Source: a virus
Taxonomy: Duplodnaviria; Caudoviricetes
Direction: 5' to 3' (one strand)
Length of the DNA: 32,959 nt
Virus record (IMG/VR): IMGVR_UViG_3300020045_016384
Span: 1-32,959 of that record
Positions 12,263 to 23,106 of this stretch are shown piece by piece. Under the pieces are notes generated by a model. That model was not told the origin of the DNA. It was given only the letters and a program-made list of their open reading frames with translations, and did no database searches. Each line of letters begins with the position of its first letter. The stretch's first letter is position 1. The position numbers and the translations under genes were made by a program.

Positions 12263-12606
12263 CCCATGAAGGTAGTCATGTCAAGCGCGCCCAGACCTGG
12301 AGCTATAAAGTGCTTGCCGTCCCAATGCAAGGTCAGAATGTCCGGCTCAATAGGCTGGAATCGACACTGGTACGATCCTGGCTCAATGGGTCTTGTGTGC
12401 CATAGGTGCCAAGGAGATATGCGCGTGTGGGGCCATTCAATCGGCTTGGTATCTGGGCCGATTTTCTCGAATACCCCATTGAGAAAAGCATGCACGGAAC
12501 CACACTTGTAGCAGCGATCCGGCGTGGGCCGTGACCAGGTAGCTTTCAGGTATTCCGAAAAAATAATGGTGGTACCGCAACGTGTGCATTCATAACTGTT
12601 TTTCAC
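12241..12606 (-). CDS. Zn-ribbon-containing hypothetical protein
   Basis: CTRC...CYKC pairs. Confidence 0.7.
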   Translation of the reverse strand: MKNSYECTRCGTTIIFSEYLKATWSRPTPDRCYKCGSVHAFLNGVFEKIGPDTKPIEWPHTRISPWHLWHTRPIEPGSYQCRFQPIEPDILTLHWDGKHFIAPGLGALDMTTFMGWRGAWE

Positions 12607-13111
12607 AGTTCCACCTTTTCGTCAGTGTCATTGCCAAGCCTGCCGAGACTGCCCCGCCAACGTGTGTCCAATGGGAAACGTCAGGCAGCAAGCCTAGCAC
12701 TTGCAAAATGATTTCGGCAAGTACAAGCAATATCAATAGCACATCAGCACGAATTGGAATATAGAACAGTCGAATTTTGCGCGTAGGAAATAAAACCGCA
12801 TAGCCCGTCATTAGTCCAAACACGACACCGGATGCCCCAATTGCACTAACACCTGGCTGTAATAGTTGTTGAAATGCACCGGCACCGATTGCCATCAGCA
12901 AATAGTATTCGATAAATTTTCTTCGTCCCCAATGTCGTTCAAGCACCATGCCCCAAAAAAATATTCCGATCATATTCACAAGAAGGTGCCAGATATTTAG
13001 GTGAATGAAACTGTATGTAAAAATGTTGATCGGAAACCATCCAATCGGTGGAATGCTCATTATGACGTTTAGTAAAATAATGTACGGCACAAAACTAAAC
13101 TTGTATTTCAT
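12590..13111 (-). CDS. Rhomboid-family intramembrane serine protease (173 aa)
   Basis: FIHLNIWHLLVNM (HxxxxHxxxN), G..LER.WG, catalytic GASG and SHWTHVGG; about 6 TM helices; AAGGA RBS before ATG 13111. Confidence 0.9.
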   Translation of the reverse strand: MKYKFSFVPYIILLNVIMSIPPIGWFPINIFTYSFIHLNIWHLLVNMIGIFFWGMVLERHWGRRKFIEYYLLMAIGAGAFQQLLQPGVSAIGASGVVFGLMTGYAVLFPTRKIRLFYIPIRADVLLILLVLAEIILQVLGLLPDVSHWTHVGGAVSAGLAMTLTKRWNCEKQL

Positions 13112-13412
13112 TTTTAATCCTTTGCAAGCAAGCCAGCAACCAGTCCAATTGTTCAATGGGGAACGCTGCGGCATCGCCATGAGAGAAAATAACAATAGCG
13201 TCTTCGACATTAGCATCAAGCGATACCATGTATTCAAAACCACTGCCATCCGAATAAAGATGTCCGAAACTAAGCTTATCAGCACTGAGAAATGTTTGAT
13301 TCGAGTAGGCGCTGGCCCCGACTTGAGCCGGCGAGCAATTATCACAAAGTTGATTGCCCTGCCAATTTAGCCCGTCTATTTTTATCGAACATTTTCCACA
13401 TTGCATTGCCAT
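13095..13412 (-). CDS. Hypothetical protein with N-terminal Zn finger
   Basis: CGKC...CDNC; start at 13412, just after the previous stop. Confidence 0.65.
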   Translation of the reverse strand: MAMQCGKCSIKIDGLNWQGNQLCDNCSPAQVGASAYSNQTFLSADKLSFGHLYSDGSGFEYMVSLDANVEDAIVIFSHGDAAAFPIEQLDWLLACLQRIKNEIQV

Positions 13413-13955: not shown

Positions 13956-14147
13956 TCATTTAAATTTCTCCCCTAAGCATTCTTTGGCTTCCAGCGTATC
14001 GCGTAAAAGTTCTATGTGACGTGGCATTTCCACTGCAACGCGAACACCCTTGGCGGTTTCTCTTCCGATAGCCACATGGATTAGTTCGCCACTATCATTG
14101 TTATACAGTGTGAATGTATCGCCTGTTTTATAGTTCAGGACTATCAT
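13956..14147 (-). CDS. Divergent CsrA/RsmA-like RNA-binding protein
   Basis: MIVL..K.GDTF...IHVAI.....GVRVAVEMPRHIELLRDTL follows the CsrA pattern MLILTRR.GE....V.V.V.....QVRIGI.APK.V.VHREEI; 63 aa. Confidence 0.6.
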   Translation of the reverse strand: MIVLNYKTGDTFTLYNNDSGELIHVAIGRETAKGVRVAVEMPRHIELLRDTLEAKECLGEKFK

Positions 14148-14380
14148 GCGACAAGCCCTTGATAAGGTGCCACGTTCAAGTGCGTAGGTTGAGCAACTAC
14201 AAACATGATATCGCCACCAAATTTCAATTCACCATTGGATTCAAAATGTAAAATCTGAGAATTGGCAAGGTGAGCAAATTCGGTTTGCCCGATGTAGATG
14301 CAAACGACTTTTCCAGGGTTATCTGCTTTGACTCTGATCGCACTGAGTCTAATTTGATCGCCCAAATTCATCGCATGCAC
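14144..14380 (-). CDS. Hypothetical protein
   Basis: Overlap-coupled ORF in the operon. Confidence 0.65.
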   Translation of the reverse strand: MHAMNLGDQIRLSAIRVKADNPGKVVCIYIGQTEFAHLANSQILHFESNGELKFGGDIMFVVAQPTHLNVAPYQGLVA

Positions 14381-14883
14381 TCCACGTACACTTCGGCAGC
14401 AAAGTCATCCACAGCACGCTTCTGGTACTCTTCGCTCAAATAGCGCGTGCGACCGTAGGCGATGATAACCATATCTCGCCCTTCTTTACTCTTGGTCAAT
14501 GCGAGAACTTCTTCAATGGGCATGCCTGCTTGTCTGCCTTGCATGATCGCACGACCCATCCTGGTGTACGCTAAGCATAATTCACTATCGCGTTGCACAG
14601 GCGGTTTGGCGAAGCATGCCGTTGAGAAAAGCAACGCGGCAACCGTGAGTAATTTTGCAACTCGTACCAGGCTGTAACGTTTGATCGTGAGTAATTTTGC
14701 AACTCGTACCAGGCTGTAACGTTTGATCGTGTGTTTGATTTTATTCGGCTCGGGTAATGGTGCCACTTGCGAATTTTTTGTTTGGATGGATTGCACGAAA
14801 TAGCGTGCTGAATTTTCAAGTGCTTCAAATCCGCACCCTGTCAATTCGATTTCATTGCCGCGAAAATAAGGTCTATCGTTCAT
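14368..14883 (-). CDS. Hypothetical protein with an internal signal/TM-like segment and a Cys-flanked helical domain
   Basis: GGAG RBS; LLTVAALLFSTACFA at about aa 77-91, followed by C...IMQGRQAG...AY...F.....C. Confidence 0.7.
   Translation of the reverse strand: MNDRPYFRGNEIELTGCGFEALENSARYFVQSIQTKNSQVAPLPEPNKIKHTIKRYSLVRVAKLLTIKRYSLVRVAKLLTVAALLFSTACFAKPPVQRDSELCLAYTRMGRAIMQGRQAGMPIEEVLALTKSKEGRDMVIIAYGRTRYLSEEYQKRAVDDFAAEVYVECMR
14644..14731. repeat. Perfect in-frame 42-bp tandem duplication
   Basis: 14644-14685 is identical to 14686-14727 (+4 nt); encodes TIKRYSLVRVAKLL twice. Confidence 0.95.
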
Positions 14884-16152: not shown

Positions 16153-16319
16153 GCTTTCACCTGATTGATTGGGATTTTCTTTTTGATACGTTTGCCGCAA
16201 AGAGATTTTACAAATACTTCAATCGGCTTTTCGTAATCTACCTGACTGCAAGTCCAAAGCACTTTCCACTTTTTACCATCTGTCGTTTCGACTACTTGAC
16301 CATCTGCAAATTTTCGCAT
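16140..16319 (-). CDS. Hypothetical protein (59 aa)
   Basis: MRKFADGQVVETTDGKKWKVLWTCSQ...NQVKACTV*; strong GGAGG RBS; not in the ORF track. Confidence 0.75.
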   Translation of the reverse strand: MRKFADGQVVETTDGKKWKVLWTCSQVDYEKPIEVFVKSLCGKRIKKKIPINQVKACTV

Positions 16320-16340
16320 TTGTCCTCCATTTGAATTGTT

Positions 16341-16440
16341 GTCGGTACTTTCCCGACTGTCATCTTTGCAAAGGTTCCCAGTTATTCATCGTCAGGGGGA
16401 ACTCCACGGCAGACGATCCAGATGTTAGTTGTTGCAAAGA
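16341..16440 (-). ncRNA. Structured RNA element in the leader
   Basis: Stem TCTTTGCAA/TTGCAAAGA enclosing GTTCCC/GGGAAC, followed by the hairpin GTCGG-GAAAGTA-CCGAC just upstream of an RBS. Confidence 0.45.
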
Positions 16441-16469
16441 ATCACTAACCCACGGCTCTAAATCTAAAA

Positions 16470-16591
16470 CCCTTCGTATCCGATTTGAACGGATGGTGAG
16501 TAAAGCCGCTTTAGGCGGTGACTACACCGGAAGGTAATTCCGACTTTACCCATCTATACCCATCAACCTTAAACCACTCAGTCAACGAAGT
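16470..16591 (-). ncRNA. tRNA-like RNA with an expanded, branched central region
   Basis: Acceptor-like CTTCGT/ACGAAG, D arm TG-ACT-GAGTGGTTTAA-GGT, T arm ATCCG-TTCAAAT-CGGAT; about 70 nt lie between the D and T arms. Confidence 0.65.
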
Positions 16592-16646
16592 GTATCAACC
16601 AGTTCCTTTGGCGGGGGAGGGCTTCCGGCCCTGGTTGACGATTTGG

Positions 16647-16675
16647 ACTCTACTGCTACTTTTTAATTGTGTCAA
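16647..16675 (-). promoter_or_regulatory. Sigma70-type promoter for the non-coding leader
   Basis: Minus strand TTGACA-N17-TAGAGT immediately after the helicase stop. Confidence 0.75.
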
Positions 16676-18358
16676 CTACTTTGTCACTTTTTCAATAATC
16701 TTGTCCCGCAGCTTCTTGGCTTCCGCCGCGTTAAGTGCCTTTGCGGCCAATGTGTCAACGCCGTATGTCAGGAAAAACTTGCGGTTGTTTACCCGCTCGT
16801 TAATGTTAGGCGGTAGCACAAGCGACATGGTTTGCCGCAATTCATGTTGCGTGTGTTGACGCTCTTCATGCCGCCTGCGAACAGCAGCAACTACTTCCGG
16901 CCCAACGTCACGCGGTATTGCGCAGAAGCCATCGAGGCGTTGTACTTCACCAAACAATTTCTTCAACATTTCTTCGGTGTACAAATGCAAATCACCATCG
17001 ACATATTCTGGTCGCGAACGATCAGCTGGTGGATCGGGTTCTTTTCCACAGAAGGGGCAGGCTGGATAAATGCGTTCGTAATATTCCATGCAGGCTTTAT
17101 TATCGCACGCGCGACCTGGAATGCGATCAGGATTTTTATTTGAACGACCTTCAAGCGACCAAGGCGTGTCTCTCCAATCAGGAGGCCCATAGTGTGTGAT
17201 AGTGTTGCCCACCATGTCGATCACTATTGCGTAAGGCTTCGCGCTTTCGGCAATGTGTTTCAATCGTTGCGGTACCGAAAACGTATCCCATGCCCCGTGC
17301 AAAATTTTACTAATCATCAAGCGTAGCGATCTGCCCCATTGCTGCGTGAACAAACAGCCCGATGCAGTTGGTCGCGCCATAATGACTAATTCCAAAGCAG
17401 GTACATCGACACCTTCGCCAAATAGATCAACGTTCATCACCATCAATATTTTTCGTTCGGCTAACTCACGCATCGTTGCCCGCCGTTCGATGTCAGGTGT
17501 ATCCGCAGAAACTATTTTTGCGGGAATGCCAGCAGCACTAAATGCGTTTGCCATTTTTGTAGCTTCTTCAACATCGACACAAAACGCAATGCCGATTTTA
17601 CCCATCGCATGTTCTTTGTAAGTTTTAACTGCGTCACCAATAATTCGAGTATTGGCTTTTACTTTGCGAACGGTCTGATCGTGATTGTACTCGCCAGTGA
17701 TCGGACTGATATCAACATCAGTCATATCGAAGTCAGATGGTTGCGCCATGATGACGCGATAGCCGGTAAGAAATCCGTTGTCGATCATCCAACGTAATCG
17801 TGGCCCTTCAATCAATGCGTCAACTAGACCGGCAGAATGCGAACCCAATCCTTTACCATCGGTACGTTCTGGAAATGCGGTTGGAAACATGCCGCGTGCA
17901 TTGGGAAAAATACTAAATGCTCTACCCCATTTATTTTCACGAAGAACGTGATGCCCTTCGTCTTGAAAAACCATATCGACACGTTCTGTCCAACTACGCG
18001 GAAGTTCTCTACGTAAAATAGTATCAACGCTTGCCACTTTCCAATTAGATCGAGTGTCGTAATAAGATCGGCCGACCTCTTCCATGTGCGCAGTTACAAT
18101 TCCTTTGATGACCTGTTTGGGTGCAATGATGTCGTGACGAACACCTTCTTTGGCAAGTGCGATTGACAACTGCATATTTAATTCTGATCGATGGGCAATA
18201 GCGCAACCATAGCCCCCATGATTTCTGGCAGTGTCACCCATCAATACTGTTTTACCGGCACCTGTTGGCAGCACTGGCATAACACACCTTGCTCCTTCAT
18301 CCCAAGCGTCATAACAGCCTTGTTGTACTTGGGCCTGGAACGATCTGAGTCTTGTCAT
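16676..18358 (-). CDS. SF2 (DExH) DNA helicase with C-terminal Zn finger
   Basis: LPTGAGKT, QDEGHH, TAFPERTDG, GEGVDVP, QQWGRSLR and C..K.C...CPFCG. Confidence 0.92.
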   Translation of the reverse strand: MTRLRSFQAQVQQGCYDAWDEGARCVMPVLPTGAGKTVLMGDTARNHGGYGCAIAHRSELNMQLSIALAKEGVRHDIIAPKQVIKGIVTAHMEEVGRSYYDTRSNWKVASVDTILRRELPRSWTERVDMVFQDEGHHVLRENKWGRAFSIFPNARGMFPTAFPERTDGKGLGSHSAGLVDALIEGPRLRWMIDNGFLTGYRVIMAQPSDFDMTDVDISPITGEYNHDQTVRKVKANTRIIGDAVKTYKEHAMGKIGIAFCVDVEEATKMANAFSAAGIPAKIVSADTPDIERRATMRELAERKILMVMNVDLFGEGVDVPALELVIMARPTASGCLFTQQWGRSLRLMISKILHGAWDTFSVPQRLKHIAESAKPYAIVIDMVGNTITHYGPPDWRDTPWSLEGRSNKNPDRIPGRACDNKACMEYYERIYPACPFCGKEPDPPADRSRPEYVDGDLHLYTEEMLKKLFGEVQRLDGFCAIPRDVGPEVVAAVRRRHEERQHTQHELRQTMSLVLPPNINERVNNRKFFLTYGVDTLAAKALNAAEAKKLRDKIIEKVTK

Positions 18359-21213: not shown

Positions 21214-23106
21214 ATGGAAGCCGAAGTCGATACCGAGTGTTACAGAAATTTTTGGTTATTTCGTGCGCTCGATCAGCACGGCAAGTTTCACACTTTCCCA
21301 ATGACGAATGAAATGCCTCTGGATCGACAAGGCGTTGCTGATTTTCTCTATCAGCACAAAATTTATACGTTCAACGGCATCAACTACGATATGCCGATGA
21401 TTACGCTGGCTTTGAATGGTGCGACATGTGCGCAACTCAAAGAAGCAAACGATGCAATAATCACAAAAGGTTTGAAGCCTTGGGATTTTTATAACTACTA
21501 CAATATCCAGCCGCTTGATTATTTGAATCATGTTGACTTGATCGAAGTGGCACCCGGCGTGCGAATCAGTTTGAAACTATACGCCGGTCGCAATCATTCC
21601 TTAAAGATGCAAGACTTACCTTATCCGCACGATAAGGAATTGTCGCCTTGGGAAATGTTTAACACGACTGACTACTGCGGTAACGATCTTTGGAACACGA
21701 AAGATTTACGGGTAGCATTGGCAGGCGAGATAGCTCTTCGTGACGCATTGACCTACAAATACCAAGTCGATCTGCGAAGTAAATCAGATGCGCAGATTGC
21801 CGAAGCCATTATTAAAACCAAACTGACGTTCAAGCCGCAACGCCGATACATTCCGCATGGCTACAATTTTTACTGCGATATTCCCCCACACATCAAATTC
21901 GCCACACCTGAATTACAGGAAGTGCTTTCGATTGTTCGCAACGCATCGTTTGTGGTGGAAGACAAAGAGCAAGCTATCGAACTTGGCATTCTCGAAGGTG
22001 TGCGTACTGGTGTAAAGATTCCCGATGAACTTAAAAAGATGGTCATCAAAATAGGCAACGGAAAATATAAATTCGGTATTGGTGGATTACATTCACAAGA
22101 ACAAACTGTTTCTTACTACACGAACGATTATGTCGAATATGAAGACATCGATGTCGATAGTTTTTACCCAACCAGCATTTTGAATGCGAACATGTACCCC
22201 GAACAAATTGGCCCAGGTTTCATTCCGATCTACCGTGAGATTTATGATCGCCGATTGTTTTGTAAATCGGAAGCTAAACGTCTTGAAAAGATCGCCGCTT
22301 ATTTAGACGGTCAAGATAAGAACGATACGATTCATCAGCAAGCGCAAATGACCGTAGAGAACGAAGGATTAAAGATTGTGCTTAACGGCACCTTTGGAAA
22401 ATTGTTCTCCATGTGGAGCGTTGTTTACGCACCTGAACTTGGCATCAAGGTCACTATCGGAAATCAATTGTCATTGCTCATGCTAATTGAAATGTTGGAA
22501 CTTAGCGGCATTCGTGTCGTGTCTGCAAACACCGATGGCCTGGTGGTCGAAATAAAAAAAGGCATGCGCAAAATATTTGAAGACGTTGTTAGATGGTGGG
22601 AACAAGTTGGCGGATTCACCATGTCGTCTAAAAAATATAGATCGATCCATTTTCGCGATGTCAACAATTACGTTGCAATCGACAGCGATGGTAAGGCAAA
22701 ACGCAAAGGTGTTTTCGGCCAAGGCGGAATTACTAAAAAGAAACATCCGGAAAAAGAAATCTGTTCCGATGCAGTGGTTGAATATTTACTCAATGGCACA
22801 TCGATTCGCGAAACGATTAAAAAATGCAATGACATTCGCAAATTCGTTGTGATCCGGCAAGCCAAAGGTGGCGCATGCTATTCCAAAACCGGAGAGTACC
22901 TTGGCAAAGCAATTCGCTGGTACTACGGCATGGAGCCTTGGTTCATCGCAACGGTTGGTAGCGGTAATCGTGTTGCCGGATCGGAGTATGCAGTACCGTG
23001 CATGCAGCTTCCGCCCATCATGCCGACCGATGTGAATCACGAATATTACATTCGTGAAGCAATGGAAATGTTGAAGGACATAGGAGTAGTTTATGGCCGC
23101 GATTAA
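21214..23106 (+). CDS. DNA polymerase, family B-type, with 3'-5' exonuclease
   Basis: Exo motifs DTECY, FNGINYD and YCGND; polymerase motifs DVDSFYP, KIVLNGTFGK and NTDG. Confidence 0.92.
   Translation: MEAEVDTECYRNFWLFRALDQHGKFHTFPMTNEMPLDRQGVADFLYQHKIYTFNGINYDMPMITLALNGATCAQLKEANDAIITKGLKPWDFYNYYNIQPLDYLNHVDLIEVAPGVRISLKLYAGRNHSLKMQDLPYPHDKELSPWEMFNTTDYCGNDLWNTKDLRVALAGEIALRDALTYKYQVDLRSKSDAQIAEAIIKTKLTFKPQRRYIPHGYNFYCDIPPHIKFATPELQEVLSIVRNASFVVEDKEQAIELGILEGVRTGVKIPDELKKMVIKIGNGKYKFGIGGLHSQEQTVSYYTNDYVEYEDIDVDSFYPTSILNANMYPEQIGPGFIPIYREIYDRRLFCKSEAKRLEKIAAYLDGQDKNDTIHQQAQMTVENEGLKIVLNGTFGKLFSMWSVVYAPELGIKVTIGNQLSLLMLIEMLELSGIRVVSANTDGLVVEIKKGMRKIFEDVVRWWEQVGGFTMSSKKYRSIHFRDVNNYVAIDSDGKAKRKGVFGQGGITKKKHPEKEICSDAVVEYLLNGTSIRETIKKCNDIRKFVVIRQAKGGACYSKTGEYLGKAIRWYYGMEPWFIATVGSGNRVAGSEYAVPCMQLPPIMPTDVNHEYYIREAMEMLKDIGVVYGRD

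Follow-up and report, generated by a model that had tools for sequence, protein, structure and literature searches.

A 356-base gap between the stop codon of a superfamily-2 helicase gene and a 59-aa open reading frame holds, on the minus strand, an element with the outer parts of a tRNA and an unfamiliar middle, and the question raised by this locus is whether that element is a real RNA and, if so, what a phage would use it for. The window analysed here is the whole virus record (32,959 bases, estimated to be ~64% complete), which derives from a tailed phage with lambda-like tail genes, a DNA polymerase, a primase and the helicase (16676-18358, annotated by profile). A sequence-only reading had described the element as a tRNA mimic with canonical D and T arms, lacking an encoded CCA and mismatched at the first acceptor pair, in which an insert of ~70 nt replaces the anticodon and variable arms. 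Every letter quoted in that reading was found at 16470-16591 on the minus strand, and the outer architecture is as it had been given: the D arm is present, the T stem has 5 bp with a TTCAAAT loop, no CCA is encoded, and A1.G72 is a mismatch in a 7-position acceptor. The insert does take the place of the two arms, at 71 nt, but the two inner hairpins proposed for it are not its preferred fold. The claim that a 7-nt anticodon loop is missing also agrees with the sequence, in which the D arm is followed by 13 nt outside the nested fold and then by a long arm; a 5-bp anticodon stem with a 7-nt loop directly after the D arm is absent.

The 5' strand of the acceptor stem, together with C-1 and A-2, lies at 16585..16593 (positions 1-7 are 16591-16585) and is followed by U8, G9 and a class II (Ser-type) D arm at 16566..16584, with a 3-bp stem and G15, G18 and G19. 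The next stretch, 16553..16565, carries a signature common to the family described below, composed of TGA after the D stem, the 5' strand of a predicted pseudoknot (16561-16557) and a TAGA linker (16556-16553). The long arm (16497..16552) consists of a 9-12 bp basal stem and a small hairpin, and the loop of the latter (16536-16532) is the predicted partner of the 16561-16557 strand; an additional 3' hairpin in this arm, probably at 16529-16516, is missing from compact family members and has a similar counterpart in Xanthomonas phage FoX2. C47, C48 and the T arm occupy 16478..16496, with C48 as the Levitt partner of G15, and the 3' strand of the acceptor stem is found at 16469..16477, where G73 falls at 16470. 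Six of the seven acceptor pairs and all five T-stem pairs can form, and the elbow bases are present.

The window copy was examined alone with ARAGORN and Rfam, both proposed in the sequence-only reading, and by folding. ARAGORN detected no tRNA or tmRNA in the element, and Rfam returned nothing at E<=1 across the window and only chance-level matches at E<=10 in 16300-16700. The single-sequence fold is not better than those of shuffled sequences (z of -0.76, and -0.77 in a second run). Acceptor pairs 2-7 have pair probabilities of 0.86-0.98; the T stem has a probability of ~0.15 in the free ensemble, in which a GATGG/CCATC helix competes. Within the insert, the 9-bp basal stem of the earlier fold was recovered (p ~0.88), but its two inner hairpins, TCGGAA/TTCCGG and CCGC/GCGG, are not preferred, with probabilities of 0.01-0.03 for their outer and 0.29-0.39 for their inner pairs. 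That fold reaches -28.1 kcal/mol, whereas an arm of 12 bp carrying the hairpin CGGTG/CACCG reaches -30.8 kcal/mol, and the best fold is separated by less than 1 kcal/mol from several other inner arrangements; the folding models suggest that the window's inner hairpins probably differ from those first drawn. The A1.G72 mismatch is probably internal rather than terminal, because C16592 (C-1) can pair with G16470 and A16593 (A-2) with T16469. The element is judged to be real because homologues support it, and not on account of its own folding.

A first search pattern comprising the D loop, 58-88 free bases and the T loop found 89 viral loci. At least four of the five T pairs and six of the seven acceptor pairs are formed in 49 distinct matches, the window included, although pairing in these stems was no requirement of the pattern; four of the 49 (L010, L064, L046 and L033), which by eye are ordinary interrupted or tandem tRNAs, were later removed. 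Tighter patterns with TGA after the D stem gave 31 viral and 20 metagenome loci, and the same D arm with TGA is present in 41 distinct elements, counting that of the window. The window element belongs to a phage RNA family missing from Rfam, whose members retain the acceptor stem, a Ser-type D arm and the T arm but have an insert of 50-80 nt where a tRNA has its anticodon and variable arms. In compact members TGA is followed by a single base, then by five variable ones, the TARA linker, a stem of 9-10 bp enclosing a 3-4 bp hairpin and a 3-nt bulge, the 3' strand of that stem, CC and the T arm. The features defining the family, namely the Ser-type D arm with TGA, the TARA linker, the long arm, C48 and the T arm, are all found in the window element, and C48 occurs in 29 of 30 dereplicated members though it is absent from the search patterns. 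Among 148 tRNAs called by ARAGORN in the fetched loci, a sample biased by the fetching, the D arm of the window is shared by 4/13 tRNA-Ser, 4/13 tRNA-Leu and two others.

A covariance model (R1) built from 16 compact members, with the window left out, scores the window element at 62.3 bits over its full length, the second-best match within the window at 15.6 bits, and T4 tRNA-Ser, tRNA-Leu and rnaC at 47.7, 27.5 and 17.5 bits, respectively. Other held-out members of the subset score 47-66 bits, and long-insert RNAs outside the subset 39-55 bits. Rfam assigns a sub-optimal tRNA score (35-47 bits) to long-insert relatives in 8 to 10 of 20 loci; in another 20 loci, no element of the TGA type receives a match. 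Variants were also seen: L254, L263, L278, L279 and L292 (at about 350-511) are family members with a hairpin insert in the D loop just before GG, and in L107, L123, L087 and L221 an added hairpin separates TGA from the knot strand. Long-insert tRNA-like RNAs that lack TGA form another and larger group within L007-L095 (e.g., L007, L011, L040, L075 and L077); A73 is more frequent there (13/25), a CCA is sometimes encoded (5/25), and the group probably comprises several distinct families.

Covariation among homologues, also proposed with the sequence-only reading, is seen in the acceptor, T stem and long arm of 26 relatives. The nested helices are paired in 92.6% of 691 cells, as compared with 55.5% after shuffling and 38-45% in slid controls, a count that leans toward the model since the alignment was fitted to the model's own structure. 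Two-sided changes occur in all seven acceptor pairs and in four of the five T pairs.

The family has a further feature that the first reading overlooked: the long arm's tip loop base-pairs with a five-base segment that follows the D arm, and this pseudoknot shows compensatory changes across the family. A blind search of 26 dereplicated inserts (of 39) found a mean of 5.15 Watson-Crick pairs against 4.04 +/- 0.16 in shuffled inserts, with at least five pairs in 20 of the 26. When the 5' segment was fixed by position (n = 17), cognate loops offered 4.88 pairs and non-cognate loops 2.81, and the cognate value was reached in 0/100,000 permutations. The comparison was repeated on seven new members kept out of the 47 distinct matches of a later scan (six in a stricter first pass, seven in the final set), giving 4.29 vs 2.86 pairs (58/50,000 permutations). 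In the model alignment, for which the model contains no knot, the five knot pairs are formed in 76% of 121 cells vs 52.8% in shuffled and 30-41% in slid controls, and two-sided changes are present in all five pairs. The controls in these comparisons remove shared ancestry only in part. The window knot would join 16561-16557 to the loop at 16536-16532 by four Watson-Crick pairs and a G-U, one base off the usual register. Taken alone, four pairs are reached by 17.6% of non-cognate pairings, and the blind per-sequence p is 0.935; the predicted knot of the window is weak, and its assignment derives from a position homologous to that of the family knot. FoX2 has five complementary bases at the predicted place, and its insertion holds a second copy of the knot 5-mer, which by eye would permit a nested alternative.

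Family members, with their conserved knotted fold, are found in many phages that are not related to one another, on contigs of 40 kb to 250 kb. Some lie at tRNA cluster ends, some follow late-control genes in lambdoid phages and others stand alone, and several directly precede the start of an open reading frame. The flanking late-control genes comprise one Q-like protein and three of phrog_3412; among 48 flanking proteins, neither a further shared family nor a defence-related partner gene was detected. One member lies in a cultured phage, Xanthomonas phage FoX2 (MT161382, 22322-22439; 64.3 bits), where it is unannotated, is covered by a short hypothetical open reading frame and carries a 3' insertion resembling that of the window; FoX5 has the same blastn match. 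Three other members used as queries had no full-length match in cultured phages, the window region itself had no blastn match among GenBank phages, and a match in ICP1 falls within a protein-coding gene and was regarded as chance. No member was found in 80 loci around related helicases (a single helicase sequence found no viral locus as query, but an alignment did), in five GenBank phage helicase loci, or in the five closest whole genomes (method control 5/5), and because it is missing from these loci and genomes the element is an accessory gene. Exact patterns, which miss variants, found no match with a T loop in 185,579 GTDB genomes, and six D-loop-only matches without a T arm. The FoX2 member is part of a stretch of ~900 nt (~21730-22630; L234:1900-2800) with several hairpins and only very short predicted open reading frames, which also contains a second odd tRNA, annotated as tRNA-Leu, with a 24-nt loop replacing the anticodon loop. 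Proteo-phage-1 RNA (RF03044) occurs near three of the lambdoid members (L099:2382-2454, L102:3242-3322 and L116:3153-3231).

In the window, a candidate sigma-70-type promoter (TTGACA, 17 nt, TAGAGT; 16647..16675, minus strand) overlaps the end of the helicase gene and has 10/12 consensus matches, a score reached by four sites in 2.5 kb when 3.0 are expected; judged by its sequence, it would start a transcript at ~16640. It is followed on the minus strand by a leader hairpin (16594..16639) with a 9-bp outer stem and a folding energy of -19.7 kcal/mol, which ends 2 nt before the acceptor stem and has no homologue among the fetched loci. Downstream, between the element and the next ribosome-binding site, a structured non-coding trailer (16325..16468, minus strand) may share the element's transcript. 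No conservation of flanks was seen among the fetched loci. At 16341-16363 (minus strand) in the trailer, GACAG is followed by a small hairpin with GGAAAG(T)AC in its loop region; this motif lies within 300 nt of 5/42 family elements, as against ~0.6 expected from helicase loci, occurs twice in FoX2, and is possibly a separate small phage RNA motif. A possible H-type pseudoknot of 6+6 pairs at 16374-16417 (minus strand) was discarded, its partner strand being present in 2/88 pattern matches and the window having about seven such sites, and a 9-bp complement between ~16432-16440 and 16361-16369 is also a DNA palindrome and has no family support. Hammerhead, HDV-like and twister readings of the trailer, made by eye, found no support in Rfam, nor did a group I intron, which would need a longer insert.

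The closest parallels among known RNAs include the anticodon-less RNAs of T4 and the class II tRNAs. T4 species 1 RNA (rnaC, AF158101 70908-71046) and species 2 RNA (rnaD) are likewise small stable RNAs encoded in a phage tRNA region, and the 3' part of rnaC resembles the family, by eye, in that an acceptor-like stem is accompanied by a T arm while the anticodon loop is missing. In the passages available from PMC9697503 and PMC3014915, the function of both is still described as unknown. Unlike the family, rnaC and rnaD lack the Ser-type D arm and the TGA and TAGA signatures; the score of rnaC on the family model is under those of most ordinary T4 tRNAs and rnaD is not matched at E<=5, and the two are analogues, not detectable homologues. 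Bacterial tRNA-Ser, tRNA-Tyr and tRNA-Leu share with the family the type of D arm, G15-C48, the T arm and a long arm that stops two bases short of the T stem, but the family differs from them in having no anticodon stem-loop, a bulged arm of 12-14 bp that takes part in a pseudoknot, a discriminator that varies and no CCA. In tmRNA, as in the family, the upper half of a tRNA is joined to a long helix in place of the anticodon arm; the window element differs in having U3-A70 rather than G3-U70, a D stem and no tag frame, and ARAGORN was negative. YrlA and other bacterial Y RNAs (RF02553) have an acceptor-like stem that is an internal stem-loop and a gene beside Ro60, according to the available text of PMC4201824, unlike the window element, whose 5' and 3' ends form the acceptor stem and which has no Rfam match; no TROVE protein was found among 44 (PHROGs) or 20 (Pfam) proteins of the window, in a record that is 64% complete. 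Allo-tRNAs and tRNA-Sec also have a long variable arm, sometimes an 8-bp acceptor, and occur in some phages, and some allo-tRNAs are not used in translation; but they keep the anticodon loop, have 8/4, 9/3 or 8/5 folds and a long D stem, and have no pseudoknot described in the available sections of the same source (PMC5389517). The window has neither that loop nor an Rfam match, and its D stem is 3 bp, though an eighth acceptor pair is possible. The allo-tRNAs of PMC7609411, the Lak tRNA introns (PMC6784885) and the tRNAs in GOLLD linkers (10.1101/2024.12.08.627333), as described in the portions available, differ from the family in their defining feature or layout. No description of the family was found in the accessible portions of the literature; the 10,006 viral candidate RNAs of PMC10690425, which lay outside the comparison, may include it. 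The family is a new instance of phage tRNA mimicry with a covarying pseudoknot, of a kind that annotation tools overlook or mislabel.

The acceptor end and the insert bear on whether the RNA could act in translation. The discriminator base and CCA are not conserved: N73 is A, C, G or U in 12, 10, 6 and 2 of 30 dereplicated members, respectively, and NCCA is encoded in 1/30. Positions -1 and 73 form a Watson-Crick pair in 21/29 members vs 8.3 in shuffles (0/5000 shuffles; four pair types; L017 and L036, in shifted register, left out), whereas 102 ordinary phage tRNAs show no excess (37 vs 37.7 expected). The excess was not repeated in the seven new members (2/7 vs 1.7 expected), so that an 8-bp acceptor is likely a trait of only part of the family. 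A mimic that is serylated through its long arm and sequesters EF-Tu, or that goes into the ribosome, where its self-paired loop would substitute for codon-anticodon pairing, could draw on the fact that serine identity lies mainly in the variable arm and ignores the anticodon (PMC9976931, in the part available), on G73 in the window, on G2:C71 as the commonest second pair (14/30), and on a CCA after one base in a few members. N73 varies freely and is often paired, however, and by the identity rules in the same part of that source the window carries C2-G71, which acts against E. coli SerRS as an antideterminant, and has no G1-C72, nor does it have the A73 and A15-U48 required for leucine; such a charged mimic is quite improbable. 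Far less credible still is a tRNA with an intron whose splicing would yield a decoding molecule, in the manner of the "enigmatic introns" of Lak phages, tRNA introns that are on record (PMC6784885, in the part available). ARAGORN, with a lowered threshold and introns allowed, does yield a call for 49/49 elements, SeC(tca) in the window, but the forced anticodons are scattered across the subfamily (Pro, Asp, Leu, Arg, Ser, SeC) and differ even between near-identical inserts (Ile in L013 vs His in L022); in these calls, taking out one segment does not give the same anticodon across homologues, and the covarying knot binds the supposed intron to the core. Because there is no conserved discriminator or CCA and the forced anticodons are inconsistent, the window element is taken to be neither a decoding nor a spliced tRNA. 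The earlier proposal of a tRNA mimic is supported by covariation in 26 relatives, the missing anticodon loop and the lack of a consistent intron, and the element is very probably a real, selected, non-decoding mimic.

Three accounts of its role or state then compete. The one preferred here, if tentatively, is a trans-acting decoy that would engage host proteins able to recognise a tRNA by its shape, with defence enzymes that destroy tRNAs as the likeliest targets. For an RNA that is carried by a phage as an accessory, is shaped like a tRNA and would not be charged, the simplest use is to occupy host proteins that read that shape, and the tRNA-gene-like locations, at tRNA cluster ends and behind late-control genes, count in favour. 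Transcription from the promoter at 16675 would give a stable RNA, trimmed by host tRNA enzymes, uncharged and unable to decode. The 5-bp knot helix would stack below the D stem in the place of the anticodon stem, with the long arm beside it like a tied-down variable arm, giving the outline of a Ser/Tyr/Leu-type (class II) tRNA that offers neither a free anticodon loop nor any single-stranded site for cleavage; the RNA could then bind tRNA-targeting effectors and escape cleavage. That the decoy targets anticodon nucleases proper, as suggested in the sequence-only reading, is doubtful because no free anticodon loop is offered as bait; better suited would be enzymes recognising the elbow or variable arm. 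Both Septu and retron Eco7 cleave a class II tRNA in its variable loop, and a phage tRNA may serve as decoy or supplement, as the authors suggest in the available part of PMC13096335; the anti-defence tRNAs known from that part are full decoding tRNAs, not mimics, which speaks against a decoy, as do the lack of a defence partner among the flanking proteins, the weak window knot and a T arm that is disfavoured in free folding. The more specific notion of an uncuttable class II tRNA, whose knotted variable-arm tip poses as a false anticodon stem so that an RNA-only inhibitor jams tRNA-cleaving immune enzymes, is rather unlikely as it stands.

The main rival of the decoy, though itself rather unlikely, is a module acting in cis, whose tRNA shape would either guide cleavage by RNase P or further enzymes of tRNA processing or else stabilise a longer transcript of the phage, composed of the leader hairpin, the element, the structured trailer and the downstream small genes. 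Pairing past position 1 and structured flanks suit a module in a longer RNA equally well, as do the unconserved discriminator and CCA, the ~900 nt without convincing genes around the FoX2 copy, and the members just upstream of an open reading frame. RNase P recognises the acceptor and T arm, and a covarying pseudoknot and long arm would seem needless for a processing signal; moreover, -1:73 pairing did not recur in the new members, and the flanks vary among the fetched loci. Improbable, though less so than a charged mimic, is that the family is real but the window copy is drifting or in decay, as its A1.G72 mismatch, weak and shifted knot, 18-20 nt insertion, competing GATGG/CCATC helix, near-equal inner folds and element-free close relatives might indicate. 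All core positions are nevertheless intact, including six of seven acceptor pairs, all T pairs and a 9-12 bp arm; its 62.3 bits fall within the 47-66 of held-out members with insertions; 1:72 is unpaired in 6/29 members and FoX2 has a similar insertion; and a promoter candidate lies just upstream. With its covarying knot, a compact form of 100 nt and a member in a cultured phage, the family makes the purpose of anticodon-less tRNA mimics of phages directly testable. If the family blocks tRNA-targeting immunity, it would be a new RNA counter-defence, and if it acts in cis, a new phage RNA-processing module; should the uncuttable-tRNA reading be true, it would define a new counter-defence class and hold the key to the purpose of anticodon-less RNAs like T4 species 1.

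Other genes of the record deserve mention. A phage-encoded rhomboid intramembrane protease is found at 12590-13345 on the minus strand (PF01694, E 1e-26), with its real start probably at about residue 80 of the listed open reading frame. The run of genes downstream of the tRNA-like element includes one for a 63-aa CsrA-like protein (13956-14147, minus strand; PF02599, E 9e-4, under the curated cut-off), and the open reading frame at 14368-14883 (minus strand) contains an exact tandem duplication of ~16 residues.
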